DNA of 64,000 bases, from the NCBI GenBank assembly GCA_041649175.1, contig JBAZNR010000001.1, positions 450,332 to 514,331 of the forward strand, read 5' to 3'. Positions 1 to 24,533 of the stretch are shown one piece after another. The position numbers were made by a program, and so were the translations under genes. How positions within the stretch are numbered: position 1 is the first letter of the stretch; each line of letters opens with the position of its first letter. This DNA is from Candidatus Omnitrophota bacterium. Its GTDB lineage: Bacteria > Omnitrophota > Gorgyraeia > Zapsychrales > JBAZNR01. The notes beneath the pieces are model-generated. The model was given only the letters and a program-made list of their open reading frames with translations, had not been told where the DNA came from and ran no database searches.

Positions 1-565
1 AGGTGATCGGCAGGATGCTCGCCTTTTGCTGCGCGTCCATGCCTTGGCCGGCTTGCGTATTATCGGCAATGGCCAAAACCAAAACATTTTGAAATAGTGT
101 TACAGAAATTTTTTCCGTTTCTTTTGATTTCTCAGATTCCTTGGGGTTTGGAGTAGATAAATGAGCGATAATATCCACATAATCTCCCGGAGATACTAAT
201 CCTCCGACGGCAGAAAGCTTATCGATATTGACCGTCACCGCTCTTTTTCCCGGAGGAGTTTTAAGGCTAAGGGGCGTTTGCGTCTTGGTTGCCGCGGCCG
301 CGGCGGCTTGCTGAGCTTTAGCGAAGGATTCCTGCTGTTTGGCGGCAAGCATTCTATTTTGCTGCGACAATTCCTCAATCTTCTTGGCGAGAGCATCGAT
401 GTCTTTTTTGGCTGTTCCGGCGCTAGCGACCAAAGCCGCCCGATCTTTTTCTTTTTCAGCTTCCATGTAACTATTAGCCAATACCAAAGAAACAATGCCC
501 ATCACAATAGCAATGCCGACTAAAATAACTTTTTTCTTATCAATTGCTTTTAAGTCAATGGCCAT
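1..565 (-). CDS. cpaB: Flp pilus assembly protein CpaB/RcpC (5' portion; gene runs off the window start)
   Basis: Reverse-strand frame, missing from the ORF track because no stop lies in the window: MAIDLKAIDKKKVILVGIAIVMGIVSLVLANSYMEAEKEKDRAALVAS…GKRAVTVNIDKLSAVGGLVSPGDYVDIIAHLSTPNPK…ISVTLFQNVLVLAIADNTQAGQG. It has an N-terminal TM anchor followed by a SAF-like 'RAVTV…VGG.V.PGD.VDI' module typical of CpaB. The ATG at 563-565 lies 4 nt after the upstream gene's stop codon. Confidence 0.6.
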   Translation of the reverse strand, partial: MAIDLKAIDKKKVILVGIAIVMGIVSLVLANSYMEAEKEKDRAALVASAGTAKKDIDALAKKIEELSQQNRMLAAKQQESFAKAQQAAAAAATKTQTPLSLKTPPGKRAVTVNIDKLSAVGGLVSPGDYVDIIAHLSTPNPKESEKSKETEKISVTLFQNVLVLAIADNTQAGQGMDAQQKASILPIT

Positions 566-569: not shown

Positions 570-1499
570 TTATTTTAAAAGCTCCTCGTTGGTCACAATG
601 GTCGTCTTAGATTTTAGCTCGTCAATGTATTTTAAAATAGCCTGCTGTTGCTCCATTAAAGTCAGGCCATTTTTAATTTCTTCTTTAACGACTGCGAAGC
701 TTTGCGGATTACCGCCTTTTTTCTCTTCTAATTTGACGATGTAATATCCGTCGGGTCCTTTAAAAACACTGCTGATATCGCCCGTATTTAGGATGCTTAC
801 CGCTGTTTGCATTTGAGGAAATTTAAATTCCTTGATAAATCCCAGATCGCCGCCTTGAGCAGCGCTGGCGGCCTTAGAACGCGCCTGTGCCACCGACCCA
901 AAATCCGCTCCGGCTTGATAAAGTTGCGATAAAATTTCCTTGGCCTCTTCTTGAGTGGGAACCATAATTTCTCTTAAGCGCCATTCGCCGGGCTCAGAGA
1001 AAACATCTTTGTTTTGATTATAATATTCTTCCGCTTGCTGGTCGGTAACGGCAATGCTGGACGTGACCCTGGTGGCTACTTCCTGCATCAATAAACTGCG
1101 GCGAAATTCATCTAAAGCGGTTTTAATATCTTTTTCTTGCGCTATGCCGCGGCTTTCCGCGTCCTGAACTAAAAGCTGTTGGCGAACGAGCTCGTCTAAA
1201 ACCAATTTTTTTGATTCGACGGTGCTGGTATCGTAATCAGGAATGACTTCTTTGATGGCTTTAAGTTTTTCATTAAATTCATCTGCGGTGAGCGTCCAAT
1301 TTCCAACTTTCGCAACAACATCCGCGGCTACGGCTGTTTCGCCCGTCGGAGAAGTTGAGCTAGAAGTCGTTTCAGCCGCCGGTTTAGCTTTAGCTTTTAA
1401 AAACGGGACATAATCAGAAAGAAAGGATAATTTGTCACATCCGGAAACGGAAACCAATAATAGAGCCGACAGTATTGCTGTCATGCTTAGGCGTTTCAT
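570..1499 (-). CDS. Peptidyl-prolyl cis-trans isomerase, SurA/PrsA-like lipoprotein (parvulin type)
   Basis: 309 aa. The signal peptide ends in the lipobox LVSVSGC. A SurA-N-like region is followed by a parvulin/PpiC core (…GGDLGFIKEFKFPQ…). A strong SD (ACGAGGAGG) precedes the ATG. Confidence 0.8.
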   Translation of the reverse strand: MKRLSMTAILSALLLVSVSGCDKLSFLSDYVPFLKAKAKPAAETTSSSTSPTGETAVAADVVAKVGNWTLTADEFNEKLKAIKEVIPDYDTSTVESKKLVLDELVRQQLLVQDAESRGIAQEKDIKTALDEFRRSLLMQEVATRVTSSIAVTDQQAEEYYNQNKDVFSEPGEWRLREIMVPTQEEAKEILSQLYQAGADFGSVAQARSKAASAAQGGDLGFIKEFKFPQMQTAVSILNTGDISSVFKGPDGYYIVKLEEKKGGNPQSFAVVKEEIKNGLTLMEQQQAILKYIDELKSKTTIVTNEELLK

Positions 1500-1551
1500 A
1501 ACAATAAACCTCCTCGTTTTTCTAAAGGGAACAAATAATTTAATTTATTTT

Positions 1552-1580
1552 ATTATAAGGAGTAAGGGAAAGAGAAACAA
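1552..1580 (-). promoter_or_regulatory. Candidate sigma70-type promoter (TTGTTT-17-TATAAT on minus strand) upstream of the PPIase/cpaB pair
   Basis: The minus-strand sequence reads cTTGTTTctctttcccttactccTTATAATaaaat, about 55 nt upstream of the PPIase ATG. Confidence 0.3.
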
Positions 1581-1647
1581 GAGTTTTTATAGAAATATTT
1601 TTCCTAAAAAGTTCTTTCTCAAAGTAACAGCCGTTGAAACCTGCGCA

Positions 1648-2622
1648 TTACGGAGCACAGTTGCAACCGGCCGGAACGGGAGAGCCTTCGTCCGGCGGAG
1701 GACATTGCATTGGGCCGCAATTATCACACCAAGTAGTGCCGGCACCATGACAAAAATTCTGTCGATGACATTCATAACGCGCATTGCAGCATTGGGGAGC
1801 AGGCGCAGACCCTTGCCATTTATGCATAATAGCCCTACAACATTCATTATAGGCGTAGCAACACCCGTTGCCGTCGCTGCAGTCTGTTGATAGGCCGCGA
1901 CAAAATGCTTCCGTTTGAGCGGGGCATCGAACGTCACAATCATTATCTCCGCAATGTCCGGAACAATACTCCACACAACAGTCATTAGGCGTATTAATGA
2001 TCGTTTCATAGCAAGGAGCATCGTTATTACAAACGCCATTATTACGCAATCTCGCACAGCAATCGGGAGGACAAGTATACTCATCTTCATTGGGCCCGCA
2101 GAAATTATTTCCGCAGGTGTCGATCCAGGGACAATCCGCATAACAGCCTACATCTCCGTCAATAGGCGTTCCTCCGGAATTGCTGGGGCCATTTTCCGTG
2201 CAGCAACTTCCATCACCGCATGCGGGACTTCCGTGACAATCTAGACAACAATTCGTGTTAGTTTCTTCTCCATTACACACATTATCTCCACAGTACGAAC
2301 AATCGATCGGAGATATAGCGGCTGTTTCTCCGCCAATGGTGCAACATACTCCGTCACCATCAACCATGGGAAAATCTTGGCAGCAATAGGTTAATGTTTC
2401 GCCGGGATCGACAGCTCCGTTTCCACAATCGGGAGGAACAGGATATTCTGTGGCGGGCAAAAGAGGATCTTTCATAGAATCGCTGGCGGAGTCTTGCCAA
2501 CTTTTAAAATGAGCGTTGATGCCGCGAATCGTGGACGGACCCATGAGGATAATGCCGGCTAGCACCAATACAACAACGACGGAGAATTCAATGATAGATT
2601 GGGATTTTTTGGAAGAAATCAT
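1648..2622 (-). CDS. Cysteine-rich secreted/membrane-anchored protein with type-IV/Flp-pilin-like N-terminus (paralog A)
   Basis: ORF-track frame 1648..2721. The likely start is the internal ATG at 2620-2622 (MISSKKSQSIIEFSVVVVLVLAGIIL…), which matches the start of paralog B and removes a 74-nt overlap with it. About 60 Cys occur in 324 aa. The 'CGNGAVDPGETLTYCCQDFPMVDGDGVCC' motif resembles the CGNGxVExGE…DGDG Cys-rich repeat family. Confidence 0.75.
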   Translation of the reverse strand: MISSKKSQSIIEFSVVVVLVLAGIILMGPSTIRGINAHFKSWQDSASDSMKDPLLPATEYPVPPDCGNGAVDPGETLTYCCQDFPMVDGDGVCCTIGGETAAISPIDCSYCGDNVCNGEETNTNCCLDCHGSPACGDGSCCTENGPSNSGGTPIDGDVGCYADCPWIDTCGNNFCGPNEDEYTCPPDCCARLRNNGVCNNDAPCYETIINTPNDCCVEYCSGHCGDNDCDVRCPAQTEAFCRGLSTDCSDGNGCCYAYNECCRAIMHKWQGSAPAPQCCNARYECHRQNFCHGAGTTWCDNCGPMQCPPPDEGSPVPAGCNCAP

Positions 2623-2647
2623 TGGTTTTATTTCTTTTCCTATTTTA

Positions 2648-3715
2648 TCAACAAGAATTGCAATGATGCGGCGGACTACTTGTATTACATGCATTCGGTA
2701 CTCCGCAGGGGGCATCATCACAGCGACCAGGATTTCTCACTGAGACACAACTGCAGTATGTCCCTCCGGAAGACATTTGTTTCTGGCAACAATGACTCCC
2801 ATTGCGCCAATCAACCAGGGAACAACAAGTGCCTGAAGTAAGATTTTGTAAACAAGTTCCACAAAGCCCAGGCTCACCACATGGATCGCAATCTGCGTAA
2901 CAACGGTACGTATTAGGCACGCGATAATTGTCAGGGGATTCACAATCTTCATTGCAAATATGATCACCGCATTGAACCTCGCCGCCATAATCACAACAAT
3001 CTGTGGGGCAGTTTTGAATAGTTTCACCAATTTCGACATCACAGCGTCCACTACCACAATACATGCAGTCTTCTGGGCAATTCATCCAACTTTCACCGCA
3101 AGCAGGCCTTCCCATATAACCGTCGGCGCAAATACCATCCGGCGGAGAACACATAGGACACGGAGCCGGGCAATCATTAGTTGAATGCAAGTCTCGTCCA
3201 ACACCAACACAAGGATCACCGGCAGGACGAGCCAAACAATCAGCCCGAGATATAACACCATTAGCCGTACAGCAAAAGTTATCGTTGGGAGAAGAACAAT
3301 CGCCACAACAATATCCTGACAAATTGCTCGTCGTCCACGTTTCAGGATTAGAAGGATGGTCGGCATTGCAGGTAAGATCACCACAATAAGCACAATCGTT
3401 GGGCGATGTAACGGCCGTTTCTCCGCCAACCGTACAACATACTCCGTCACCATCAGTCATGGGAAAATCTTGACAACAATAGGTTAAGGTTTCACCGGGA
3501 TCAACGGCTCCGTTACCACAATTAGGAGGCGCGGGGTATTCAACGGCAGGCAAAAGAGGATCTTTCATAGAATCATGCCCGGAGTCTTGCCAACTTTTAA
3601 AATGAGCGTTGATGCCGCGAATGGTGGACGGGCCCATCAGAATAATACCGGCTAGAACCAGCACGATGACGACAGAGAATTCAATAATAGATTGGGATTT
3701 TTGGGAAGAGATCAT
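2648..3715 (-). CDS. Cysteine-rich secreted/membrane-anchored protein with type-IV/Flp-pilin-like N-terminus (paralog B)
   Basis: 355 aa with an ATG start. The N-terminal ~115 aa are almost identical to paralog A (MISSQKSQSIIEFSVVIVLVLAGIILMGPSTIRGINAHFKSWQDS…CGNGAVDPGETLTYCCQDFPM). The C-terminal ~240 aa are divergent but equally Cys-rich, and contain no CXXCH. Confidence 0.8.
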   Translation of the reverse strand: MISSQKSQSIIEFSVVIVLVLAGIILMGPSTIRGINAHFKSWQDSGHDSMKDPLLPAVEYPAPPNCGNGAVDPGETLTYCCQDFPMTDGDGVCCTVGGETAVTSPNDCAYCGDLTCNADHPSNPETWTTSNLSGYCCGDCSSPNDNFCCTANGVISRADCLARPAGDPCVGVGRDLHSTNDCPAPCPMCSPPDGICADGYMGRPACGESWMNCPEDCMYCGSGRCDVEIGETIQNCPTDCCDYGGEVQCGDHICNEDCESPDNYRVPNTYRCYADCDPCGEPGLCGTCLQNLTSGTCCSLVDWRNGSHCCQKQMSSGGTYCSCVSVRNPGRCDDAPCGVPNACNTSSPPHHCNSC

Positions 3716-3814
3716 CGGTTTGTTTTAAGTTTAAACGAAAAAGGCAGGAAGGGCAATAGTTAAGATGTTCTTTTTGACTTTGAAAAGAAAGCCCTTGCCT
3801 GATATGAAAAAACT

Positions 3815-4978
3815 TTAAGGGATCACTAGATTAAACCGTACCGAAAAACGAAATTCGCTTCCCTTACCTTGTTCGGAATGAAGCGAAATAAGCCCGCCCA
3901 TCTTTTCCACCAAAACCTTGCAAAGCCAAAGCCCTAACCCGGAAGATTCTTTGCGGGCCTGCGAGCCGACAACAGAATGAGGCAATGCACCTGCTTCACG
4001 GGGCAAAACATGTTCCATGGAACGCGGTTTAAAAATATCCATCTGTTTTTCTTTTGGAATTCCTTCCCCGGAATCTTGGACTACAAAAAAGATATGACAT
4101 CCGCGTCCTAAAACGGTCATCAAACGTGCTTTAAGACGAATTTCTCCTTCTTGGGTGTAGTGGATCGCGTTCGATAAAAGATTCATCAAGATCTGTTTTA
4201 AGCGATATTGGTCTCCTTTAAGATATCGTGGGATCTCTTTGTCAATTTCGTAGAAAAATTCGACCGGTTTTCCTTTAATGGCCGGATAAACATTCTTAGC
4301 AACTTCCTCCAGAACGTGCGTCAGTTCAAAATCCTCTTCCTTTAATTCCAATTTTCCCGTTTCGATCTTGGCGATATCAACGATATTATTAGCAAGATTG
4401 TGAAGAAAAAGACTTTTTGTTTTTAAGGCAGAGAGCGCTTCAACTTGTTTTTCACTGATGGGCATTTTAATAAGAAAATTAATATCCTTGATCATATCAA
4501 TCATGGCCTCATCAATATCGCGGCTGATCTGCATCAAGAAAATTGCCTTTTCTTGATGGGCATGTTCTAGGGCTTCCTTAATGCGCCGGACACTGTTGAC
4601 TTCCTCCTGTTGGTTTTTTCGCTCCAAGCCGCGGCGTATCGTTTCAATGAGGTCGGTTTTTTTGACCGGCTTGATCAAATAATCGAACGCCCCGACTTTG
4701 AAACTCCTGATGGCCGATTCTGTCGTCGGATAAGCGGTGATCATCACCACTAAAGTTTCCGAGTTTATCTCTTTGATCTTAGAGATCAATTCCAGGCCGG
4801 TCGTTTCTTTAAGGACAATATCGGTTAACACAAGCTGGTATTGTTTTTGTTTGAGAATGGTCAGCGCTTCGCGCTCATTTTCCGCCGTATCGACCGAGAA
4901 ATCTTCTTTGCTTAAGATCTCTTTAAAACCGTCCAGAATAGATGTGTCGTCATCAACAATGAGAACGCTTGATCTCAT
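3815..4978 (-). CDS. Hybrid response-regulator/histidine kinase (REC-HisKA-HATPase_c)
   Basis: N-terminal receiver (LIVDDDTSILDGF…LVLTDIVLKE), an H-box (LFLHNLANNIVDIAKIE), and C-terminal ATPase G-boxes (DSGEGIP…GLGLWLC). SD AAGAGGTGG precedes the ATG. Confidence 0.85.
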   Translation of the reverse strand: MRSSVLIVDDDTSILDGFKEILSKEDFSVDTAENEREALTILKQKQYQLVLTDIVLKETTGLELISKIKEINSETLVVMITAYPTTESAIRSFKVGAFDYLIKPVKKTDLIETIRRGLERKNQQEEVNSVRRIKEALEHAHQEKAIFLMQISRDIDEAMIDMIKDINFLIKMPISEKQVEALSALKTKSLFLHNLANNIVDIAKIETGKLELKEEDFELTHVLEEVAKNVYPAIKGKPVEFFYEIDKEIPRYLKGDQYRLKQILMNLLSNAIHYTQEGEIRLKARLMTVLGRGCHIFFVVQDSGEGIPKEKQMDIFKPRSMEHVLPREAGALPHSVVGSQARKESSGLGLWLCKVLVEKMGGLISLHSEQGKGSEFRFSVRFNLVIP

Positions 4979-5075
4979 GGCCCACCTCTTTCATTTTCTT
5001 TGCATTGAATATATTCCCTTTAGGGCTGGGCGCTCATTTTGTCATTTGACAAAATGAGCGCCACAAAAATAAATT

Positions 5076-8000
5076 TTATGTGATCGGTAATGTTATCGTA
5101 AAAATACTCCCTTTTCCCACTTCGCTTTTCACTTTTATCTCGCCTTTATGTTCTTTAATAATTCCTTGGCAGACAAAAAGCCCTAGCCCTGTCCCTGATT
5201 CCGCCTTGGTTGTAAAAAAAGCATCGAAAATATGAACAAGGTCTTTTTCCTGTATCCCTTCGCCGGTATCTTTGATCTGGACGATCACATGATGTTCATC
5301 ATGCGTTGTTGTAATGGTTACCTCACCTTTTTGTTTTTTGATGCTGTCATGGGCGTTGAGCACCATATTTAAAAACACCTGATGCAGCTGTTGCTGCCAT
5401 CCCATAACTTTAGGAAGATTTGGATCAAGATTAAGCGTTAATTTAATACCCTTACGGGACAGCTGATGTTCCACCAGCATCACCACTTTATCGATCACAT
5501 CATGCAGATCCATTTTTCCTTTGGCTTCTTCTTCTCCGCGATAGATATCGAGAAGCTTTGAAACGATATTGCGGATCTTTTCAATATTATTTTTTACAAA
5601 TTCGTAATTTTTGACCTTTTCAAACCCTTTGGGAAAATTGTCGTGGATGATCTCTAAATGAGTTGTGATCCCCTGTAGGGGATTATTGATCTCATGGGCG
5701 ATGCTGGCGGCGAGCCGCCCTGTGGCGGCGAGCCGCTCGGATTGCCGTAAGCCGCGGGTACGTTCTTCTACTAATTCCTCCAAATGTTTACGGTACTTCT
5801 CAAGCTCTTCCTGAACTTTCTTACGTTCATCAATGTCGCGGACAACAGCTAAGATACGGTCTTCATCACCAATACGGGCGCGTTTTAAATTCACTTCCAC
5901 CCAAAACGATTTTCCTTGCTTATTTTTGCTGAACCATTCAAACAATTGCGGTTGGCCTTGCGCGGCTTTTTGGATCAGCTCTAAAGCACGCTTTTGATTT
6001 TGAGAAGACCTATCGGAGCTGATGTCAATAACCTCTATGGATCTCATCTCTTCTGATGTATACCCATACATCTCGCACGTCTTTTGATTGACATCAAGAA
6101 TTTTCCCTGTCTTTACATCATGAATAAAGATCGCGTCATTGGCAGAATTAAAAATAGACCGGTAATTGATCTCAGATCTGGCAATAGCCTCTTGGATCTT
6201 TTTAAGGACCGTAATATCCGTTGAAACGCCTAAAATAGCCGGCGTATTGGTCCCCGGAATATGAAAAGGGATCTTGGTCGTTTGCAAAATACGCTGTTCA
6301 CCTTGGGCGCTGGTAATGACTTCTTCGGGAATAAATTTTCTTTTTCCACTTTTGATAACATCCAGATCATCTTTTCTAAAATGCTCCACTTCCTCTTTAC
6401 TTTTGGCAAAATCGGCGTCGGTTTTTCCGACGATCTCCTCCACCGTTGTCCCATAAACTTCGGCTACGGCCTGATTAACTAAAATGAACCGCCCATCAAT
6501 ATCTTTGGCAAAAACAAAATTCGGCGTTAGATCGATCACTTGGCGAAGTTTCGCTTCATTTTCTTTGACAATATTCTCGGCTAATTTACGCTCGGTAATA
6601 TCCTGAATCATGGTTTGAAAACCGATCATCTTTCCGGCTTTGATAAGGGGAGTATTGCTGATATTGGCATAGAACTCTTTTTTGGATCCCGTAACACATC
6701 TAACCTCGTGATAACGCGCTTGGACTTTCTCTGACCTTACCGCTTCCTGAAATATTTTTAGGATGCGTTCTTTTTCATCCGGATGAAGAAACATAAGAAA
6801 TGATTGGTTGATAATATCTCTTCTATCTCTTTCGAACATCTCCAAAAAAGATCTATTCGCAAAAAGGACCCGGCCGTCCATCGCCACATGTAAAACACCC
6901 GCCGATATACTTTCAAAAAGCAATTTGTACTGTGCTTCGTTCTCTTTGAGCTTTTCTTCCGCTTCTTTTTTCTCGGTCACATCTCGCCAGCTAGCGACAA
7001 TGCCATGTGTTTTCCCGTCTTTCTGTTTAATGACCCTTCCATTGGCTTCCATCCACAAATAATGCCCTTGGGCATGTCGGCAACGAAAAATGGCCCAACC
7101 GCTTTCCGAGGCCAGCGCTTTCTTAAATTCATTTTTTAATCTCGACAGATCCTCGGGATGAACAAAATCAAAAGCATTCGTTCCTACCATTTCTTTGGAA
7201 CGATAACCTAAGATACTTTCGATGGAGGGGCTGTGATAAAGGATGTTTCCTTCCAGGTCAAGCTCGGTAATAAGCTCCACCATGTTATCCGTGATCCGGC
7301 GCAGTCTCTCCTCGGAATTTCGCAAGTCTTCTTGGGCGCTATGTCGTTTCTCCTCGACGCCGATCGCCGAAGCCAAAATACCGATAGTTTTAATATCAAG
7401 TTCTGTCGGCTCAAGATCTTTTTGATAAACAGCGCACAAAGACCCGACACAGGTATTTGAAAATTTAACTGTTTTCCCTAAATATGTTTTTAATTGGTAC
7501 TTTTGGACATTAGGATCGCTTTGAGCATACCGGCTGTTTAAAAGATCGCGGATGATCATAACCTCGTCTTGTCCGCCTTTAATAACATCACAACAAATAT
7601 GTCCCCGGGAATCATCTTTGATCTTGTAACCATCCGGAACATTCCAACGGCCTAAAGAGTGCAGTTTTCCATCTTCCATGCGATTATAAATAACACAGGT
7701 GGCTCCCAAAAGTTCTCCGCACACAGCCGCGATCTTATTAATATTTTCTACCGGATCATCACTGAAGTTTAAGAAACATTCATTGATCTTTTTTAACCTT
7801 TCCTCGGGATTTTTCCGGTCAGAGATATCGCGGACGATACAAATAAGCCCTCCGTCTTCCAGGGCCGTTAAAGAAATTTCCTGAGGAAAAAGTTCTCCAT
7901 TTTTCCTTTTGCCGACAGATTCACCGCGCCATTTTTTCTCTCTAAAAAGAATGGGCATGATCTCGCTTTCAATATGCTTTAGCTCTTTGGGGCCATAAAG

Positions 8001-8270
8001 AACTCTCCACGATTTTCCGACGAGTTCTTTAGGGTCGTTATAGCCATAAATTTTGGCATGGGCATTGTTCATACAGGAATATTTTTCCTTGTTGTCCAAA
8101 ATAGCAATGCCGTCCATCGAGGCATGCATAGCGCGCATGTGATGACGGACAAGTTCGGGATTTATGTCTTGTTCCAGATCGGTCAAAGAGCGGCTGCAGT
8201 CTTCTTTTAAAACGATCGGAGAAGACCCGCGAGAGTTACTCAAGAAACGTTTTATAAAATCGATCATCAT
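5076..8270 (-). CDS. Multi-PAS/PAC (+GAF-like) sensor histidine kinase
   Basis: About 1064 aa. It has several PAS/PAC repeats, an H-box (AHEINNPLQGI), and an HATPase_c domain (DTGEGI…GTGLGL). The ORF-track start at 8273 is TTG; the first ATG is at 8268-8270, 4 nt after the upstream gene's stop. Confidence 0.85.
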   Translation of the reverse strand: MMIDFIKRFLSNSRGSSPIVLKEDCSRSLTDLEQDINPELVRHHMRAMHASMDGIAILDNKEKYSCMNNAHAKIYGYNDPKELVGKSWRVLYGPKELKHIESEIMPILFREKKWRGESVGKRKNGELFPQEISLTALEDGGLICIVRDISDRKNPEERLKKINECFLNFSDDPVENINKIAAVCGELLGATCVIYNRMEDGKLHSLGRWNVPDGYKIKDDSRGHICCDVIKGGQDEVMIIRDLLNSRYAQSDPNVQKYQLKTYLGKTVKFSNTCVGSLCAVYQKDLEPTELDIKTIGILASAIGVEEKRHSAQEDLRNSEERLRRITDNMVELITELDLEGNILYHSPSIESILGYRSKEMVGTNAFDFVHPEDLSRLKNEFKKALASESGWAIFRCRHAQGHYLWMEANGRVIKQKDGKTHGIVASWRDVTEKKEAEEKLKENEAQYKLLFESISAGVLHVAMDGRVLFANRSFLEMFERDRRDIINQSFLMFLHPDEKERILKIFQEAVRSEKVQARYHEVRCVTGSKKEFYANISNTPLIKAGKMIGFQTMIQDITERKLAENIVKENEAKLRQVIDLTPNFVFAKDIDGRFILVNQAVAEVYGTTVEEIVGKTDADFAKSKEEVEHFRKDDLDVIKSGKRKFIPEEVITSAQGEQRILQTTKIPFHIPGTNTPAILGVSTDITVLKKIQEAIARSEINYRSIFNSANDAIFIHDVKTGKILDVNQKTCEMYGYTSEEMRSIEVIDISSDRSSQNQKRALELIQKAAQGQPQLFEWFSKNKQGKSFWVEVNLKRARIGDEDRILAVVRDIDERKKVQEELEKYRKHLEELVEERTRGLRQSERLAATGRLAASIAHEINNPLQGITTHLEIIHDNFPKGFEKVKNYEFVKNNIEKIRNIVSKLLDIYRGEEEAKGKMDLHDVIDKVVMLVEHQLSRKGIKLTLNLDPNLPKVMGWQQQLHQVFLNMVLNAHDSIKKQKGEVTITTTHDEHHVIVQIKDTGEGIQEKDLVHIFDAFFTTKAESGTGLGLFVCQGIIKEHKGEIKVKSEVGKGSIFTITLPIT

Positions 8271-8274
8271 CAAT

Positions 8275-8853
8275 TTACGCTTTGTTTTTTAATTCCAATA
8301 ATAGGCTTATTTCGTTAAGCAGAATCTTCGTTTGAACCGGTTTTGCCAGACAACGGTCGGCGCCCATTTTCAATATTTTTGCGATATTGGGCTTGGTCGG
8401 ATATCCCGTTAAAATAAGGATCTTTATTTTCTTAAGAAGCGGATTGGATTTGATCAAACGGCAAGCGTTAAACCCGTCTAAGCCGGGCATTTTAATATCC
8501 AAAATGATCAACCCCGGCTCATACTGAATGGCTGAAACGCCGGCTTCAAATCCTTCCGATGCCGCATACGTTTTAAAACCTTCTTTTTGAAGGATCTCTT
8601 TTAAGCCTTCGCGGATGGATTGATCATCGTCCACAATGAGAATAGCCGGTTTCTTTTTTTGCTCAGAGACCATTTTATGGCGCGCCATAAAACGCTCGAG
8701 TTCTTCGCGGGGGATGCGCCGATGTCCGCCTAAAGTCTTAACGGCTTTAAGTTTTCCTGATTCGATCCAATCAATAACGGTGGAGTGGCTGACAAAAAGG
8801 CGGCTTCCGGCTTCATAGGTGGTATAGAATTCCTTTGGCGGGAGATGATTCAT
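8275..8853 (-). CDS. Response regulator with N-terminal excisionase/MerR-type HTH and C-terminal receiver domain
   Basis: The HTH reads 'EFYTTYEAGSRLFVSHSTVIDWIESGKLKAVKTLGGHRRIPREELERF'. The REC domain reads ILIVDDDQSIREGL…ILDIKMPGLDG. The maximal ORF extends to 8934 with a TTG start; the ATG at 8851-8853 (MNHLPPKEFY) was preferred. The start is uncertain. Confidence 0.65.
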   Translation of the reverse strand: MNHLPPKEFYTTYEAGSRLFVSHSTVIDWIESGKLKAVKTLGGHRRIPREELERFMARHKMVSEQKKKPAILIVDDDQSIREGLKEILQKEGFKTYAASEGFEAGVSAIQYEPGLIILDIKMPGLDGFNACRLIKSNPLLKKIKILILTGYPTKPNIAKILKMGADRCLAKPVQTKILLNEISLLLELKNKA

Positions 8854-9001
8854 CAAGAACCTTTTTAAAATAATGGTTTTAAGTTCTTTAGCAATCTTAG
8901 AATTCTTAGAATTTCCAAATAAAGAGTAACACAAGAAAACGCTTTCGTCAAGCCTGGCGAAATGCCTTTAGGAAAGATATAACTAGTTATATTACAATAA
9001 C

Positions 9002-11408: not shown

Positions 11409-11758
11409 GATAAAATTTCCTTTAGTCTTTCCGCCGGACGGGCGAGAATGGCTTTTTCGCCTTTTTCTACAATAGGCCGCTGAATAAGATCCGGATAGAT
11501 CATCATCAAATCTAAAATTTCGCTTTCCGAATAATTCTTCTCGTCAAATTTCAGCTCTTTATACTTGGCATCCTTACTTCGTAAAAGTTCTTTGGCGGAA
11601 ATCCCCATTTTGGATAAAAGTTCTTTGAGTTTTGCCTTTGAGATCGGCTCTATATAATAATCCACCGCGTCAAAGTCGACATTGCCGGCCTTTAGAGCCG
11701 CATAAACTTCCCGGCACGTTGTGCAGGTTGGTTTTTGATAAACAGTTATTTTTTCCAT
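11405..11758 (-). CDS. ArsC/Spx/YffB-family thioredoxin-fold protein
   Basis: 117 aa. The N-terminus is 'ITVYQKPTCTTCREV' (CxxC after a beta-strand), as in ArsC-family reductases. SD AAGGAAAC is present. Confidence 0.75.
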   Translation of the reverse strand: MEKITVYQKPTCTTCREVYAALKAGNVDFDAVDYYIEPISKAKLKELLSKMGISAKELLRSKDAKYKELKFDEKNYSESEILDLMMIYPDLIQRPIVEKGEKAILARPAERLKEILS

Positions 11759-11783
11759 GGCTGTTTCCTTAGATAAATATTTC

Positions 11784-12425
11784 TTATTTTAAAGCGTTTA
11801 AGGCATCCGCGTAACTTTTATGGCACTTTGTGTAAAATTCTTGAGCCTGGAGACCAGCTCTCCACTTCATAATATTAGAATATTTGCTAATGTCAATGGA
11901 GGCCACTTCCGACGGATCTAAAATAACCAAAAGCGAAATATCGGCCAATGTTATTTTATTTCCGGCCACATATTTATTCTTGGCTAATTGTTCGTTCACG
12001 ATCGGCAAAAATTTTTCCAAATCTTCTAAGCCTGTTTTTATTTCTTGCTCATCCACCGGGATATTGCGGCGCGGTTTAAAAATACGATTGTAAACAATTT
12101 TCATGGCCGCTGATCCGATATGAGCATTGATAAAATCGATCCATTGATCGACTTGAGCCCTTTGCTTGATATCTTTAGGATAAATATCAGAACCGGCCTT
12201 TTCCGCCAGATATTTGACAATGGCTCCGCTTTCAAAAAGAACAAAACCGTCGTCATCGATCACCGGAACTTTTCCTGCCGGATGCATTTTGAGGAATTCC
12301 GCTTTTTTATGTTCACCTTCGCGTAAATTCACCTTTTTATAATCATATTTCAATCCTAAAAGATTAGCCGCCATCCTTACCTTGTTCGACGGGCTAGACA
12401 GATCGCTTCCATAAATCGTTAGCAT
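11784..12425 (-). CDS. Glutathione S-transferase
   Basis: 213 aa. The N-terminal thioredoxin-like GST fold is present (…HPAGKVPVIDDDGFVLFESGAIVKYLAEK). SD AAGGAG is present. Confidence 0.85.
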   Translation of the reverse strand: MLTIYGSDLSSPSNKVRMAANLLGLKYDYKKVNLREGEHKKAEFLKMHPAGKVPVIDDDGFVLFESGAIVKYLAEKAGSDIYPKDIKQRAQVDQWIDFINAHIGSAAMKIVYNRIFKPRRNIPVDEQEIKTGLEDLEKFLPIVNEQLAKNKYVAGNKITLADISLLVILDPSEVASIDISKYSNIMKWRAGLQAQEFYTKCHKSYADALNALK

Positions 12426-12515
12426 AAAAACTCCTTTTTGCTATCAGCTTTCAGTCATCAGCCACCAGCTGCTGAAAACTGCGAGCTGAAGGCTGATAGC
12501 TTACTGATATATTTT

Positions 12516-13073
12516 TTATTCTTGAATATACGCCTTAATGATCTTTTGCTCTTCCACCGGCTTATCGTTAGCTCCGGTTTTGCAATTTTCTATTTTTTGG
12601 ACGACATCATAGCCTTCAACCACTTCGCCGAAAATAGTGTGGTGCATCAAAAGCCACGGGGTGGGAGCGGTAGTAATAAAAAATTGGCTGCCATTAGTTC
12701 CGGGGCCGGCATTGGCCATGGCTAAAATACCGGGCTTCTCAAAAGAAACACTTTTGCTGAACTCATCTTCAAATGTCCCGCCCCACAAAGATTCTCCGCC
12801 AGCGCCTGTTCCCGTCGGGTCTCCGCCTTGGATCATGAAATTTTTAATGACACGGTGAAAAATAATTCCGTCATAATAACCTTTATTCACAAGCCCGGTG
12901 AAATTCTCAACCGTCTTGGGCGCGATATCCGGATAAAGTTTTAAAACGATATTCCCTTGGTTCGTTTCAAAAACAACTTTTACATCTTTTTTGGCGTCTT
13001 GGGCCATGGCTGCTCCTATTGTCAAAGAGGTTAATAAAAACAGTGTCCCTAAAAACATCTTTACCATTCTCAT
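12516..13073 (-). CDS. ppiA: Peptidyl-prolyl cis-trans isomerase, cyclophilin type, secreted
   Basis: A signal peptide is followed by a cyclophilin core ([28 protein letters not shown]…[11 protein letters not shown]). SD AAGGAGAA is present. Confidence 0.9.
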
Positions 13074-13099
13074 TGCTGTTCTCCTTTTTAACTTTTTAA

Positions 13100-13747
13100 C
13101 TAAATGATCTTTTCTTCAATTTTTCCGATGAGCTGATCAATATCTTTAACCAAATTGGCCGGTAAAAGTCCGGAATCTTCAATTTCGTGTTTTAAACTTT
13201 TTAATGCCCCGATACAACGCCGAAGAGTGGCGTTCTGTCTTTTTTCGCGCGCCTCATCCGGGTCAAGCTCTTGACGCTGTTTCATCAGCATCGTGAGGTC
13301 TTTTTTGACTTCGCGGACATCTTTGCCTTTTTCAAAAATATTTTTCTTCAAATTCGCGTAATCAGCTCCATCGAGCGTTTTTTTATTTTTGGCTAAACGC
13401 AGCACGTCAATGGCTTCGTAGCTGGGGACTTGGCCCGGCTGTGCTGACTCCATATACTCATTTTTCAAATATTGTGGTTCTTCTTTCTCTAAAAAGAAAT
13501 ACGAACGAAGTAATTTCATTGCTGTTTGTTTACGAATCCCAATCTCCTTGGACGTATAGGTGTCAAATTGTTGATAACCCCATTCCTTATACAGTTTATC
13601 TCGGTAGACACTGTACAGCGCGCGGCCTAATTCGATCCAGGAACTCTTAAAGCTTTTGGCATTTTCTAAAATATGCCGGCGCAGACTATCCGGCTCTAAA
13701 CTTTTCATCTTTTCTTCGATATTTTCTAAAGAACGTGGTTTATACAT
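13100..13747 (-). CDS. Hypothetical protein (215 aa, charged/coiled-coil-like C-terminus)
   Basis: Complete ORF with an ATG start and consistent coding periodicity. No recognisable family. Confidence 0.55.
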
Positions 13748-13758
13748 AAAAAGTCCTT

Positions 13759-15138
13759 TTATTTTTTTGCTGGTGGTTTTGGTAAGTCTTTGATGGAATC
13801 GATGGATCTTTTTAATTCATCTTCAGGCAAATGATATACCTCAAGTTTTTCCGACAAATATTTATCGTAGCCGACCAAATCCATCAGCCCATGGCCGCTA
13901 TAATTGAACAGGATCACTTTTTGTTTACCTTCAGCCTTGGCTTTCTTAGCTTCGTCGATAACACAGGCAATGGCGTGGCTTGTTTCCGGCGCGCAAATGA
14001 AACCTTCGGTCTTCGCCCATAAAAGAGCCGCTTCATAACATTTCACTTGATCAAAAGCTTTCGGCGTCATCAACCCGTCGACAATGGCCTGGCTTACTAA
14101 AGGCGCCATGCCGTGATAACGAAGCCCTCCGGCGTGAATAGGAGCCGGAATAAAGGTATGGCCCAGCGTATACATCGCTAAAAGCGGTGTTGTTCCGGCG
14201 ACATCACCAAAATCATAGGTAAAAAGCCCGCGAGTCATTTTGGGGCAAGCGGTTGGTTCTACCGGAATAATTTCGATTTTTTTACCGTTGATCTTATCTT
14301 GTGTAAACGGAAACGCAAGTCCCGCAAAATTACTTCCGCCGCCGGCGCATCCAATAACAACATCCACTTTTTTCTCACCGGCCATCACCATTTGTTTTTT
14401 GGCTTCAAGCCCGATGATGGTTTGGTGCAAAAGAACATGATTTAAAACACTGCCCAAGCAATATCGGGTTTTTCCGGACTTATCACCGACCGCCGCTTCA
14501 ATGGCTTCACTGATGGCAATGCCAAGACTGCCCGGAGTATCAGGCATTTTCTTTAAGATCTCCCGGCCAATGGCCGTTTCCGTACTTGGGCTCGCCACAC
14601 AATTGCCGTTCCAAATTTGCATCATGGTTTTACGCATCGGTTTTTGCTCAAAGCTGACGCGCACCATAAAAATTTTGCATTCCAACCCCAACAAAGAACA
14701 AGAAAACGCCAAAGCGCTGCCCCATTGCCCGGCGCCGGTTTCCGTTGTTAAGCGTTTTATTCCGAATTGTTTGTTATACCAAACTTGCGCAACCGCCGTA
14801 TTGGTTTTGTGGCTTCCCGCCGGTGAAACACTTTCGTCTTTGTAGTAAATGCGCGCGGGAGTTTTTAAATATTCTTCTAAATAGCGGGCCCGGCGCAGTG
14901 GGCTGGGGCGCCAGCGATAAAGAATTTCTAGGATTTCTTGGGGAATATCGATCCAGCGTTTGGTACTTACTTCCTGCTCAATTAAATTCATCGGAAAAAC
15001 CGCCGAAAGCATATCGGGAGTTATCGGATTTCCGTCGGGGCCAAGCGGAGGCAAAGGCTGCGAGGGCAGATCGGCCGCCAGGTTATACCATTTTTTCGGG
15101 ATGTCTTTTTCTTTGAGGTAAATTTTTAGTTCTTTCAC
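13759..15138 (-). CDS. trpB: Tryptophan synthase beta-like PLP enzyme, TrpB2 type
   Basis: 459 aa. It has a long N-terminal extension and 'SHKTNTAVAQ' (the PLP lysine motif). The 459-aa length is typical of TrpB2. It has a GTG start with SD AAAGGAG. Confidence 0.85.
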   Translation of the reverse strand: MKELKIYLKEKDIPKKWYNLAADLPSQPLPPLGPDGNPITPDMLSAVFPMNLIEQEVSTKRWIDIPQEILEILYRWRPSPLRRARYLEEYLKTPARIYYKDESVSPAGSHKTNTAVAQVWYNKQFGIKRLTTETGAGQWGSALAFSCSLLGLECKIFMVRVSFEQKPMRKTMMQIWNGNCVASPSTETAIGREILKKMPDTPGSLGIAISEAIEAAVGDKSGKTRYCLGSVLNHVLLHQTIIGLEAKKQMVMAGEKKVDVVIGCAGGGSNFAGLAFPFTQDKINGKKIEIIPVEPTACPKMTRGLFTYDFGDVAGTTPLLAMYTLGHTFIPAPIHAGGLRYHGMAPLVSQAIVDGLMTPKAFDQVKCYEAALLWAKTEGFICAPETSHAIACVIDEAKKAKAEGKQKVILFNYSGHGLMDLVGYDKYLSEKLEVYHLPEDELKRSIDSIKDLPKPPAKK

Positions 15139-15168
15139 TTTTTTAAACTCCTTTGATCTCGTGTGTAG

Positions 15169-16056
15169 TTATTTAGGAAATATTTCTTTGGGCTCCATAT
15201 GGGCAATGACTTCCGTAACGCCGGGAATAGCTTTCTGAATAGCATCTTCAATATCATGGCTTATTTTATGCGCATCCTCTAAGGTCATTTTAGAATTAAC
15301 GAGGACGTGCAGATCGATATAAATGTCGTCGGAGCGCCCGCGGGAACGGATGCGGTGGCACGACTCAACCCCTTTGACACTTAAAACGATCTTTTCAATA
15401 TCTTTAACATTAACGATCACCACAGTATCGCATAAAACTTCAGAGCTTTGTTTAATGATCTCATAAGCTGAATAAGCGATGAAACATGAGATGAGCAAAG
15501 TGACGATCGGGTCAATAATGGGATATCCCATTTTCATAACAATGATCGCCACAATAACAGAAAAAGACGTAAAGATATCTGCCTTGGTATGAATGGAATC
15601 GGAAACAAGAATGTCGCTTTTGAGGATTTTCCCGTGATTATATTCAAAGTTCATCACCACAAGATTCACAATGATAGTAACGAACATCACGATAAAAGCC
15701 CGGTCATCGAGCTGTGGAATAATAGGATGATAAAACCGTCCCACGGCATCTTTGATAAGGTTAAAGCAGACAAAAAGCAGTAAAACGCCTATCCCTAAAG
15801 AAAAAAGCGTTTCATATTTTTTGTGGCCGTAAGGATGGTCTTTATCCCGGGGCTGAGAAGCCACCGCAATACCGATCAGCCCCATAAGATTCGAAATTCC
15901 GTCGGAGAGAGAATGAAATCCGTCTGCCGTAATACTAGCCGAACGGCTCCAAAGGCCGTAAAAGATCTTGGCCAAGGCAACCGCCCAATTCAGCAGTAAA
16001 ACAACAATTAAAACAAATCGTATTTTAGCGTAGTGTTCGCTTGTTTTTTTACTCAT
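15169..16056 (-). CDS. Cation diffusion facilitator (CDF) family metal-efflux transporter
   Basis: Six-TM CDF core (…SITADGFHSLSDGISN…HPYGHKKYE…) with a C-terminal cytoplasmic domain. The ORF-track start at 16155 is GTG; the internal ATG at 16054-16056 (MSKKTSEHYAK) was chosen. The start is uncertain. Confidence 0.75.
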   Translation of the reverse strand: MSKKTSEHYAKIRFVLIVVLLLNWAVALAKIFYGLWSRSASITADGFHSLSDGISNLMGLIGIAVASQPRDKDHPYGHKKYETLFSLGIGVLLLFVCFNLIKDAVGRFYHPIIPQLDDRAFIVMFVTIIVNLVVMNFEYNHGKILKSDILVSDSIHTKADIFTSFSVIVAIIVMKMGYPIIDPIVTLLISCFIAYSAYEIIKQSSEVLCDTVVIVNVKDIEKIVLSVKGVESCHRIRSRGRSDDIYIDLHVLVNSKMTLEDAHKISHDIEDAIQKAIPGVTEVIAHMEPKEIFPK

Positions 16057-16230
16057 GGAAGATAAAAAGTTTGGCCCAAATTTTGCCTTACACAAAATTT
16101 GGGCTACCTCGGCAACCACAATTAAATCTCTTCGAGATTTAATTGGCCGACCCACGCCTTCGGCATGGGCGGGTTTTTTCTGCTGAAAAACCCGGGTGAG
16201 GGATATTATACTAAAGGGATAAAAAAAGTG

Positions 16231-18111
16231 TTAATGTTCTTTTGTCCGATGTTCATCTTCCTTAGAACCATCACCCGTGACCCATGTCCACTTCATTGGA
16301 TAGACATCGGGGTCAAACATCACAAAATATCCGTGCCAAATAAGGATCGCCAAGCAGGCCAAAACCGCTTCATAGTAATGAATAGCCGCGATCACATCGT
16401 AAAGCCATTTAGGGAAATAATGTAAAAACCAATTTTCCCAAAGCATCAATCCTCCGGTTAAAACCATGATCATCGAGCCCCACACTAAAGCCCAATATTC
16501 AAATTTCTCAACGTATCCGTAAAATCCAAATATAGGTCTTTCTTTGCGCCACCCAAAATAATAAGCGAACATTTGCCCGCATTGGATAAAATCTTTTTTG
16601 CGCAAAATAAGGGCATTAAGATGATGCCGTCCTTTTTGCGTGAATAAAACATACACGACATGATACAGCGATAAAACGCAAAAGATAAGCGCGGCCGCGC
16701 GATGCCCGAGGCTGCGCCAATCAACCCGCCCAACGAAAGGACTGGCCCACCAGGCTTGAGGATATTTTAAAGCAAATCCGGTATACGCTAAAGCGATGAA
16801 AGCCGTCAGCAAAATAAGATGCTGAATGCGCTCATTAGTTGACATGCGTTTGGGTTTTCCCAAAGAAGACATTCTTTGATAATGCGCCCGCAGCTTCTTT
16901 ATAAAATCGAGGCAATTGTGAAGAAATAGAAATCCGATCACGGCAATGATCAAAATAATATAAAACCGGCTGACAAAAAAACCGGCTTTGTTTTCCAAAC
17001 CTGATTTTCGGCTGGTATGGATCTTGCCCTTCGCTACTTGTTCGCTCACCCCCGCGTGGCATTTACCGCAGGTCTGCTCTAGATTCTTAGGATTGACGGA
17101 AGAATTGCTGTCGCTTACGGGCAATATATCGTGAAAACCATGGCACGACGCGCAGTTGGCGGTAATGACCGAACCCAGCTTGATGGCGAGCCCGTGGTAA
17201 CTTTGCATAAATGTATCGACGACATTATTGGGCAAACTATATTTTGTGGTGATGCGCTCAACCGCGTGGCATTGTCCGCAAGTTTCTGTAATATGCGCCG
17301 GAGCAACCTTTGAGGTGATCTTTTTGACTTCTTCAATAGAATGTTCTCCGTGACAATCGGTACACACGGGCGCTTCTCTTTTTCCTTCTCTAACAGCTTG
17401 CCCGTGAATACTGCGCATATACGTCATCTGAACGTTTTCGTGGCATTTTCCACAGGTGGTGGGGATATTTTTCCAAAATAATTTTGAATCTTCATTGGTG
17501 GCTTTACTTAATGCGTGGGAACCGTGGCAATCGGTGCACACGGCCGCCTGGATAAGATGGCTTCCCTCGACGGCCATTCCGTGAACGCTATGTTCATAGG
17601 AAGAAACCGGCTCCGCAATATTGAGGTTAAATTTCTTCATCTCTTCGGTCTTTTCATGGCAATGCGCGCAAGTTTTGGGAATATTTTCCCGGTAAACAGG
17701 AGAGACAAGATTGCGGGAATTAAGAAGTTCGTGCGGATTTCCATGACAGCTTTGACAAGTAGCCGCTTCGGTAACGCCATGGCCTAAAGCCTTGCCGTGA
17801 TCGCTATTTAAATAAAGCTCGGTTTCAATGCGATGGCAGCTTCCGCAACTGACGGGTTTTAGTTTTTCTTCGTGCGGGACTTCCACAATGTCCGAATGGC
17901 AACTGATACATAAATTTCCGCCGTGAATAGACGATTTGAATTTTTCCGGATCGACAAAAGGTGTGGCTTCGGGGTCGCTGTGGCAGGTAAAACAAGTTTC
18001 ATTATCAATAACTTCTTTTTCTTCGCCGAACGATTGCGCGGAAACGCTCAAAAAACAGCAAAGAATAAAGAAACAGATCTTAAAGTTTTTGGTCGTAAGA
18101 AAATTTTTCAT
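16231..18111 (-). CDS. CbcL-like inner-membrane quinol-oxidoreductase-type cytochrome: 11-haem c-type periplasmic domain fused to a dihaem cytochrome-b (HydC/FdnI-like) membrane domain
   Basis: A signal peptide is followed by 11 CXXCH motifs (CFTCH, CISCH, CGSCH, CQSCH, CAHCH, CTDCH, CGKCH, CTDCH, CGQCH, CASCH, CGKCH). A C-terminal ~230-aa segment has 4-5 TM helices with conserved His residues (…HRAAALIFCVLSLYHVVYV…IAAIHYYEAVLACLAILIWHGY…), as in Ni/Fe-hydrogenase/formate-dehydrogenase b-type cytochromes. Confidence 0.8.
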   Translation of the reverse strand: MKNFLTTKNFKICFFILCCFLSVSAQSFGEEKEVIDNETCFTCHSDPEATPFVDPEKFKSSIHGGNLCISCHSDIVEVPHEEKLKPVSCGSCHRIETELYLNSDHGKALGHGVTEAATCQSCHGNPHELLNSRNLVSPVYRENIPKTCAHCHEKTEEMKKFNLNIAEPVSSYEHSVHGMAVEGSHLIQAAVCTDCHGSHALSKATNEDSKLFWKNIPTTCGKCHENVQMTYMRSIHGQAVREGKREAPVCTDCHGEHSIEEVKKITSKVAPAHITETCGQCHAVERITTKYSLPNNVVDTFMQSYHGLAIKLGSVITANCASCHGFHDILPVSDSNSSVNPKNLEQTCGKCHAGVSEQVAKGKIHTSRKSGLENKAGFFVSRFYIILIIAVIGFLFLHNCLDFIKKLRAHYQRMSSLGKPKRMSTNERIQHLILLTAFIALAYTGFALKYPQAWWASPFVGRVDWRSLGHRAAALIFCVLSLYHVVYVLFTQKGRHHLNALILRKKDFIQCGQMFAYYFGWRKERPIFGFYGYVEKFEYWALVWGSMIMVLTGGLMLWENWFLHYFPKWLYDVIAAIHYYEAVLACLAILIWHGYFVMFDPDVYPMKWTWVTGDGSKEDEHRTKEH

Positions 18112-18123
18112 GGATCTAAAGGA

Positions 18124-24522: not shown

Positions 24523-24533
24523 ATTTTTATTCC

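Follow-up and report, generated by a model that had tools for sequence, protein, structure and literature searches.

Modular type IV pilins have been described in Streptococcus sanguinis (PilB and PilC; Raynaud et al. 2021, PMC8179133), and the minor pilins of Tad systems, such as TadG and the Myxococcus proteins KilN, KilL and KilM, form variable "Tips" (Herrou et al. 2025, PMC12075869). The Myxococcus tips are proposed to lie at the end of the pilus and to determine prey or target recognition (PMC12075869). Here we consider two adjacent genes, designated A and B, from a Candidatus Omnitrophota metagenome-assembled genome (MAG), in each of which an apparent Flp-type pilin module is fused to a large cysteine-rich module. 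They lie in a stretch of 64,000 nucleotides (contig JBAZNR010000001.1, positions 450,332 to 514,331), which is called the window throughout. The Omnitrophota are widespread, ultra-small, uncultured bacteria.

Arguments for predatory or parasitic lifestyles in the Omnitrophota rest on Tad and type IV pilus genes, and both Tad and type IVa pilus (T4aP) systems have been reported there; in the portions of that source drawn on here, the pilin subunits are not analyzed beyond predicted conductive pilins (PMC10066038). We found no description in the literature of Flp-type carriers fused to cysteine-rich modules, as had been supposed in a prediction made earlier from this DNA (the original prediction). 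We think it reasonably likely that A and B are modular Flp-type pilins, cleaved and assembled by a Tad-like machine, which would display a variable and probably disulfide-knotted adhesion or recognition module and would most likely be minor or tip subunits of the filament.

Two paralogous genes with a conserved N-terminus

The two genes and their parts are as follows, with positions in the window and residue positions such as +1 counted from the putative cleavage point.

2648-3715, minus strand: gene A, an open reading frame (ORF) of 355 aa (NCBI WC676_01540, "hypothetical protein"), matching the family N-terminal hidden Markov model (HMM) at 2.3e-25
3695-3715, minus strand: gene A leader, MISSQKS, 7 aa with one Lys; putative prepilin-peptidase cut between Ser7 and Gln8, as predicted from the family logo
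3560-3694, minus strand: gene A pilin module, residues 8-52, with QSIIEF, a hydrophobic alpha1N segment with Gly+21 and Pro+22, and then the conserved RGINAHFKSWQDS helix
2651-3520, minus strand: gene A cysteine-rich acidic module, residues 66-355, with 46 Cys, an isoelectric point (pI) of ~4.1 and degenerate CG[DN]GxC...E...C.DC units
1648-2622, minus strand: gene B, a 324-aa paralog annotated "hypothetical protein", matching the family HMM at 1.1e-25
2602-2622, minus strand: gene B leader
2467-2601, minus strand: gene B pilin module
1651-2427, minus strand: gene B cysteine-rich module, with a single CXXCH at aa 126-130

Gene A starts with an ATG that only three in-frame codons separate from the upstream stop. 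For gene B we prefer the ATG at 2622, which matches gene A and gives the 324-aa protein, to the longer NCBI call of 348 aa. Protein A begins MISSQKSQSIIEFSVV... and protein B begins MISSKKSQSIIEFSVV..., the N-termini being MISSQKSQSIIEFSVVIVLVLAGIIL and MISSKKSQSIIEFSVVVVLVLAGIIL. Both proteins of this tandem pair have the same architecture, in which a basic leader of 7 residues is followed by a pilin module of ~45 residues, in which a conserved amphipathic stretch comes after the alpha1N helix, a short Pro-rich linker and an acidic cysteine module of ~260-290 residues.

The paralogy is a mosaic of a conserved N-terminal part and a diverged remainder. Over alignment columns 1-117, 102 of 117 positions are identical (87%) without a gap, while beyond column 117 identity drops to 62 of 190 (33%), with 65 gap columns, or to 37 of 165 when aligned Cys-Cys pairs are left out. 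The first 351 nt of the two genes are 83% identical and contain 31 synonymous and 15 nonsynonymous codon differences, indicating that the conserved 5' part is kept by purifying selection. Recent gene conversion was considered as the source of the similar N-termini and rejected because of the 31 synonymous differences. A promoter and terminator scan of positions 1300-4100 was uninformative on operon structure, as the sites found were no more numerous than in shuffled controls.

A Flp-like prepilin signal

A profile search of the N-terminal module against 1.84 billion representatives, with a threshold of E<=1e-3, recovered 201 relatives, most of them aligning only over about residues 3-60 of the query. 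A family of this size is far beyond chance. A word-indexed homolog search returned only A and B for full-length A and nothing for the 65-aa N-terminus, and earlier scans of genomes and metagenomes with the A1 alignment gave unconfirmed pattern matches only (60 in genomes, against ~57 expected by chance). Of the 18 matches to the motif YV[IL]RS[IVW]NAH in a scan of the genome collection, 17 could be confirmed; eleven of these are in MAGs labeled Omnitrophota, and six are in third party annotation (TPA) MAGs labeled "uncultured Planctomycetales". This is a phylum-associated and hitherto unnamed pilin family of 201 representatives. Its members are annotated as hypothetical, and one short member is called "Flp pilus assembly pilin Flp" in JGI naming.

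We compiled logo statistics from 139 of the best 150 of the 201 relatives, these being the ones that passed a motif filter demanding Glu at +5; the invariance of that residue is no independent evidence, because the filter imposed it. Across the 139 sequences the leader is basic, with a median length of 7 aa. Position -1 is Gly (74), Ala (55) or Ser (8), together 137 of 139; position +1 is Gln in 138; and position +6 is Tyr (108) or Phe (22), together 130 of 139. Gly is found at +16 in 110 sequences and at +21 in 125, and Pro at +22 in 129, all out of 139. The helix is followed by the motif YV[IL]RS.NAH.K.W[ED]DS..DS. The MISS[QK]KS leader of A and B is likewise short and basic, with the small residue at -1 that the type IV pilin superfamily demands, although Ser is a rare variant there; E12 falls at +5 in both proteins and is followed by the hydrophobic helix. 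The family consensus [KR]G/QSIIEY fits the G/XXXXEY motif, and the S/QSIIEF of A and B differs from it by conservative changes at both ends. AlphaFold2 (AF2) predicts residues 7-51 of A as a single helix, with a predicted local distance difference test score (pLDDT) of ~88-90.

The module is homologous to Flp pilins. Compared by hhalign with five annotated "Flp family type IVb pilin" proteins, taken from plasmid records, it matched over 42 columns with 89% probability and an E value of 2.2e-6, and the match is in register at -1 (G), E+5 and Y+6. Pfam Flp_Fap matches 11 of 136 relatives (E<=0.01, best 5.6e-5) and Class_IIIsignal 2 of 136. When a proteobacterial Flp HMM was run over all ORFs of the Omnitrophota loci, the N-termini of family members ranked at the top. 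The TadE/TadF/TadG models PF07811 and PF13400 and the N_methyl model PF07963 match neither A nor B nor any of the 136 relatives, and a PDB sequence search with the pilin-module profile found nothing meaningful.

Conserved residues N-terminal of the hydrophobic helix, with small ones only at -1, are the hallmark of a prepilin-peptidase site, whereas the n-regions of Sec signals have no sequence conservation. Since the residues in question are conserved across the family, a Sec signal is disfavored. As judged from sequence, the N-terminus of A and B is a class III (prepilin) signal of a Flp-like kind rather than a generic anchor, and the original prediction of two adjacent genes with class III or Flp-like N-termini is borne out by the logo, the hhalign match, the Flp_Fap matches among relatives and the modeled helix. 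The traits of several pilin classes are mixed here: the leader of 7 residues recalls the T4a class, as does Pro+22, a feature of type IVa pilins, the E[YF] and the helix-only core recall Flp, and Gln+1 recalls archaeal class III proteins.

The Tad-like locus and other filament neighborhoods

The genes flanking A and B in the window are the following.

1-559, minus strand: N-terminal part of cpaB/rcpC, which runs off the window (RcpC 1.2e-17; TIGR03177 3.9e-20, 72.2 bits against a cut-off of 71)
570-1499, minus strand: PpiC/PrsA-type peptidyl-prolyl isomerase (PPIase) lipoprotein (Rotamase_2 8.5e-18; lipobox LVSVSGC)
3815-4978, minus strand: hybrid receiver-histidine kinase (Pfam)
5076-8273, minus strand: PAS histidine kinase (Pfam)
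8275-8934, minus strand: HTH_17-receiver regulator (Pfam)

The PPIase lipoprotein and cpaB thus lie directly downstream of the pair, as the original prediction stated. The continuation is seen in a Logan contig from the same organism (L001; loci are given L numbers and proteins P numbers below), whose PPIase is 100% identical; it begins inside gene B and ends at 8.1 kb. After gene B it encodes the PPIase, a complete CpaB of 269 aa, an RcpA-type secretin (T2SS-T3SS_pil_N, Secretin and TonB_C domains), a fused ATPase of 721 aa with a ParA/CbiA-type domain (TadZ/CpaE-like) and a T2SSE domain (TadA/CpaF-like), and a DUF192 protein. The same order of cysteine-rich pilin, PPIase, CpaB, secretin, TadZ::TadA and DUF192 occurs in the window plus L001 and in L002, L007 and L026-28, while L003 shows just the upstream end of this synteny. 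The PPIase precedes cpaB in L001, L002, L007, L026-28 and L029. In relatives a pilin-like gene lies ahead of the cluster, usually together with the same receiver and histidine kinase genes; the order of the two-component genes at 3815-8934 is kept in L002, L003 and L026-28, and it is possible that they regulate the locus.

In canonical tad loci, as seen in records from Ralstonia and Pseudosulfitobacter, the flp gene immediately precedes cpaB, the secretin and tadZ/tadA. Genes A and B occupy this flp position beside cpaB, rcpA, tadZ and tadA, as originally proposed.

The family is coupled to filament machinery elsewhere in the Omnitrophota as well, with type IV filament genes within 10 kb of a family member in about half of the loci. 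In L017 a family member divergently adjoins PilM/PilN/PilO and secretin genes (Pfam), with a Peptidase_A24 gene (PF01478, 7.7e-7) 5 kb away. A PilMNO and secretin neighborhood was also assigned in L008, L012 and L018, as judged by ORF pattern and a PilQ/secretin BLAST match. PilB- and PilC-type genes adjoin the family member in L012 and L019, a PilT-like ATPase gene is near it in L009, and N_methyl pseudopilin genes are near it in L006.

Some further features of these loci deserve mention. The RcpA-type secretin has its TonB_C domain (PF03544) in each of L001 (gene at 2797-4416), L002 (11800-13413) and L026 (11829-13490). One protein of ~720 aa combines the TadZ-like and TadA-like ATPases; a metagenome scan with the fused query gave at least 599 confirmed relatives, and the query matched near full length at many of the 80 loci kept. 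A DUF192 gene (PF02643) directly follows tadZ::tadA in L001, L002, L007, L026 and L029 and is further downstream in L043, at these positions:

L001, 6601-6945
L002, 15584-15925
L007, 17337-17687
L026, 15661-16005
L029, 8451-8813
L043, 8071-8469

After DUF192 there is a small Zn-ribbon-like gene in L001, L007 and L026, and a gene for a soluble protein of 520-980 aa in L001, L007, L026 and L029. DUF192 may be an uncharacterized component of the Tad-like machine.

In the branch of the family associated with T4aP genes, genes of a modification type follow the pilin-like gene:

L004, 4193-6470: radical S-adenosylmethionine (SAM) genes (Pfam, with SPASM), and a look-alike of an APH-like kinase (by eye)
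L009, 11048-12091: radical-SAM-like CxxxCxxC N-termini (by eye) and an APH-like kinase (Pfam)
L017, 11261-12265 and 16400-17284: radical SAM (Pfam), and also the Peptidase_A24 gene
L018, 11098-12162: radical-SAM-like CxxxCxxC N-termini and an APH-like kinase look-alike (both by eye)

These neighbors may point to post-translational modification of the pilins of that branch.

The cysteine-rich module

Cysteine makes up 46 of the 355 residues of A (13.0%) and 44 of the 324 residues of B (13.6%). The figure of ~17% in the original prediction fits the C-terminal domain, with 15.9% in A and 17.0% in B beyond residue 65, and is too high for the whole proteins; the CC, CxC and CxxC motifs that it listed are present in both. 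The even counts of 46 and 44 were set aside as evidence, as only 45 of 97 members of at least 200 aa have an even number and many are fragments. The module is acidic; Gly, Asp, Pro, Asn and Ser are abundant in it, and Lys and aromatic residues are scarce. AF2 gave A a pLDDT of 76-89 over residues 58-182 and low values after residue ~250, and the PDB contains no sequence or fold match for the module. In P0138 (469 aa) a Hint/PT-HINT (intein-like) domain lies inside the cysteine-rich module at residues ~299-424 (PT-HINT 2.2e-20).

The repeat unit of the module is a degenerate CG[DN]GxC(C)...E[TN]...C[CP].DC. A clean version of this 4-Cys unit, CG[DN]GxC(x3-14)E(x2-6)C(x1-2)DC, forms tandem arrays in the unrelated proteins P0183, P0205, P0223, P0259 and P0266, some of the array proteins also carrying Ig-like (Big_13), bacterial TSP3 or RCC1 repeats. 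No model for the repeat was found in Pfam or NCBIfam. Proteins of such architecture are usually extracellular, and therefore structural disulfides fit better than metal sites; the module is probably disulfide-knotted. A relation to the Myxococcus cysteine-rich repeat had been suggested from the opening motif, but the likeness to CGNGxV[DE]xGE is superficial, the unit in A and B being a shorter, 4-Cys one. TIGR02232/DUF4215 (PF13948) gave no match to A or B at E<=1, nor, with Pfam, to ten related or repeat-bearing proteins at E<=0.1.

The module diverges between the paralogs while the N-terminus is conserved, and the orthologous slot in L007 is filled by a different cysteine-rich module. Such divergence between paralogs and between orthologous loci resembles the pattern typical of exposed recognition surfaces, which the module may well be. 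Part of the sparse representation of these genes in databases can be explained by public gene calls, which often run across the cysteine-rich gene in an alternative frame of the same strand (L001 427-930; L026 8886-9638; L028 802-9638). The products are nonsense "proteins" rich in Val, Ala, Arg and Ile, and for these three assemblies the true ORF is missing from the protein databases.

Proposed role and alternatives

In the mechanism that we favor, A and B would insert into the inner membrane, where an A24 prepilin peptidase would cleave them after Ser7. The adjacent Tad-like machine (CpaB, RcpA-type secretin and TadZ::TadA) would then assemble the pilin module into a filament, in which it would most likely be a low-abundance or tip subunit beside short Flp pilins encoded elsewhere. 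The cysteine-rich module, probably knotted by disulfides, would be exposed and offer a variable surface for adhesion or recognition.

Several points weigh against this proposal. No Pfam or NCBIfam model matches A or B at E<=1, so that no pilin model is reached, Flp/Fap PF04964 (for which a gathering-threshold match might be sought) being absent even at that level. Position -1 in A and B is Ser rather than Gly, a residue found in just 8 of 139 members, mostly the nearest relatives, and some prepilin peptidases refuse a residue other than Gly there. The original prediction named a lack of further tad genes as a counterargument, and while this does not apply, as the RcpA-type secretin and TadZ::TadA fusion do follow in L001, searches of limited sensitivity (BLAST, phmmer and custom HMMs built from L097-L107, with Ralstonia TadV and a PilC) detected neither TadV nor TadB/TadC (T2SSF) nor a prepilin peptidase in the 64-kb window or any of the syntenic loci. 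With ~290 residues attached to a Flp core of ~45, the proteins may be difficult to fit into a filament. L001 ends at 8.1 kb, so any short flp genes of this genome would be out of view. Finally, many Omnitrophota are anaerobes, which bears on the redox state of the cysteines.

It is possible, though doubtful, that A and B are not filament subunits at all but bitopic inner-membrane or periplasmic cysteine-rich proteins with a pilin-like anchor, cleaved or uncleaved. They might then serve the Tad-like machine as a periplasmic component or be its substrate, in the manner of type II secretion (T2SS-like), or act as a metal or redox buffer. The Ser at -1 could block cleavage, no peptidase or platform gene was found nearby, a very high cysteine content with CC and CxxC is typical of metal-binding proteins too, and the same window contains multiheme cytochrome and cytochrome c maturation genes (listed below). 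It would, however, be surprising on this account that the whole prepilin-site signature is conserved (G/A/S at -1, Q+1 and P+22) and that the family recurrently adjoins filament machinery. The sharing of 4-Cys units with tandem-array proteins favors structural disulfides, as argued above, and the acidic module, rich in Gly, Pro and Asn, also speaks against this explanation.

A second alternative, which we judge unlikely, retains the filament and makes A and B its major structural pilins; the filament would be thick, with a cysteine module on every subunit, and the tandem copies would be analogous to flp-1 and flp-2. The pair does occupy the canonical slot of the major flp directly upstream of cpaB, and strong purifying selection acts on the pilin module. 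Neither the window nor the syntenic parts of L002 and L007 yielded a further Flp-like ORF with the proteobacterial Flp HMM, and all of these stretches end before the corresponding downstream region. Where that region is visible, the syntenic relatives L026-28 have short Flp-like genes ~4 kb after DUF192, of 52-58 aa (Flp_Fap), 64 aa and 117 aa (Class_IIIsignal), and all of these carry RGQ[NS]xxEY. In L029, whose TadZ::TadA is 58% identical and which lacks the cysteine-rich gene upstream of the PPIase, eight consecutive pilin-like genes of 78, 125, 105, 150, 129, 440, 113 and 720 aa lie at 11695-17485, downstream of the Tad-like machinery, with [KR]GQxxxE[YL] N-termini; the last (720 aa) is TadG-like (PF13400). 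Because the locus in syntenic relatives also contains Flp genes of ordinary, short length a few kb downstream, A and B are probably not "the" flp pilin that the original prediction took them to be, and are probably accessory rather than the sole pilin. The bulk of the module also counts against a major pilin, and a hypervariable C-terminal region and Ser at -1 are more typical of accessory subunits.

A variant that we regard as quite improbable has A and B polymerized as abundant subunits by the Tad-like machine (and their relatives by T4aP-like machines in other Omnitrophota), giving a filament sheathed in metal-, Fe-S- or heme-binding cysteine modules that would be redox-active or conductive; such an appendage, if real, would be built on a new principle. 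This idea derives from a recurrent CC.DCH motif, together with the multiheme cytochrome and cytochrome c maturation genes in the same 64-kb window. The original prediction had excluded CXXCH heme sites, correctly for A, which has none; gene B has one (CLDCH, aa 126-130). The motif is always seen as CC.DCH[GV], in 7 of 23 close subfamily members (gene B, P0126, P0127, P0129, P0130, P0147 and P0202), and 7.1% of CxxC motifs have a His next to them on the C-terminal side, the background being 1.6% (4.4x). The position is not kept in paralog A. Heme attachment via CC.DCH is unlikely, and heme binding as the main role was rejected, there being one nonconserved CXXCH in B and none in A.

It is very improbable that A and B are precursors of cross-linked cysteine-rich products of a radical-SAM kind, akin to ribosomally synthesized and post-translationally modified peptides (RiPPs), with the N-terminus as leader: the modification-type genes of L004, L009, L017 and L018 would suit such a pathway, but neither the surroundings of A and B nor the Tad-like loci in synteny with them contain a radical SAM gene, the proteins exceed 300 aa, and the N-terminus is a membrane helix, not a RiPP leader. 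Just as remote is an ordinary Sec signal or anchor on secreted cysteine-rich proteins of a generic kind, placed beside a Tad locus by chance, since, common as basic-then-hydrophobic N-termini are, and despite the missing pilin HMM match, this would leave to coincidence the near-invariant -1, +1 and +6 in 139 proteins with unrelated C-terminal parts, the in-register profile match to Flp and the recurrent type IV filament neighbors.

Other features of the window

The following genes, of which gyrA, gyrB, dnaN and dnaA were assigned by eye from N-terminal sequences, lie further along the window:

35150-37603, minus strand: gyrA
37630-40161, minus strand: gyrB
40446-41534, minus strand: dnaN
41697-43037, minus strand: dnaA
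43921-45540, plus strand: yidC (Pfam-confirmed)
45821-47507, plus strand: parA/parB-like genes

The cumulative GC skew has its minimum near 40-42 kb, and because of this minimum and the gyrA/gyrB/dnaN/dnaA/yidC/parAB cluster the window probably contains the replication origin of the chromosome. A distance of ~40 kb separates the Tad-like locus from this putative origin, and L007 shows the same neighborhood.

A multiheme cytochrome cluster suggests a capacity for respiratory or extracellular electron transfer:

16231-27462, minus strand: the cluster as a whole
16231-18111, minus strand: Cytochrome_C7/Paired_CXXCH fused to a cytochrome b561 domain
18124-19623, minus strand: NapC/NirT-like
22930-24522, minus strand: CcsA-like, System II cytochrome c maturation
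24534-26288, minus strand: ResB, System II cytochrome c maturation

Another tandem pair of paralogs shares the N-terminal sequence ...ETI[ST]LTTYYPAPFG[VA]YDR[ML]QI... and looks like a second pair of adhesin-like surface proteins:

55775-57421, plus strand: 548 aa, with YadA_head repeats (2.2e-12)
57473-58981, plus strand: 502 aa, with no Pfam match

Comparison with known systems

The closest likeness of the carrier module is to the Flp/Fap pilins (PF04964, Tad type IVc; Ralstonia, Sinorhizobium and Pseudosulfitobacter), which also have a basic leader, a small residue at -1, xxxxE[YF] and a long hydrophobic or amphipathic helix, and whose genes are also found immediately upstream of cpaB, the secretin and tadZ/tadA. 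Unlike Flp pilins, which are typically about 50-80 aa, A (355 aa) and B (324 aa) carry an additional module of ~290 aa; a short member of the family, in L014, has 85 aa. The leader of A and B has 7 aa, against about 14 in the five aligned Flp sequences, and Gln+1 and Ser-1 are further differences. Gln+1 and Glu+5 (QSIIEFSVV) are instead shared with archaeal class III signal proteins (PF04021, QXSXEXXXL). PF04021 matches two relatives and TIGR04205 one, although A and B themselves have no PF04021 match, and the host here is a bacterium with Tad-like or T4aP-like machinery.

In overall design A and B are like S. sanguinis PilB and PilC, in which a small pilin module bears, on a short linker, a bulky functional module for the filament to present (PMC8179133). 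The survey of modular pilins in that work was defined by the IPR012902 N-methylation motif and thus by T4a-type carriers, whereas the carrier in A and B is Flp-like and has no N_methyl match; the passenger there is a vWA or lectin domain and here a cysteine-rich repeat that matches nothing in Pfam or the PDB. If our reading is right, the idea of the modular pilin extends from T4a-type to Flp-type carriers, and a common extracellular 4-Cys repeat is brought to attention that matched no model of Pfam or NCBIfam.

The TadG and Kil tips offer the other close parallel, as they too are Tad-associated pilin-like proteins with variable C-terminal domains. They differ in that PF07811 and PF13400 are unmatched in A and B, in that nothing here points to a heterotrimeric tip set, and in having an unrelated passenger domain. 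If the cysteine-rich modules are the contact surface of a pilus, they would be candidate determinants of host or prey specificity, and could serve as handles for antibodies, pull-downs or heterologous display with which to find the partners of these uncultured nanobacteria. Proteins such as A and B may be how tiny, possibly predatory Omnitrophota stick to their partners, and the predatory or parasitic lifestyles proposed for the phylum (PMC10066038) make the parallel with the Kil tips an attractive one.

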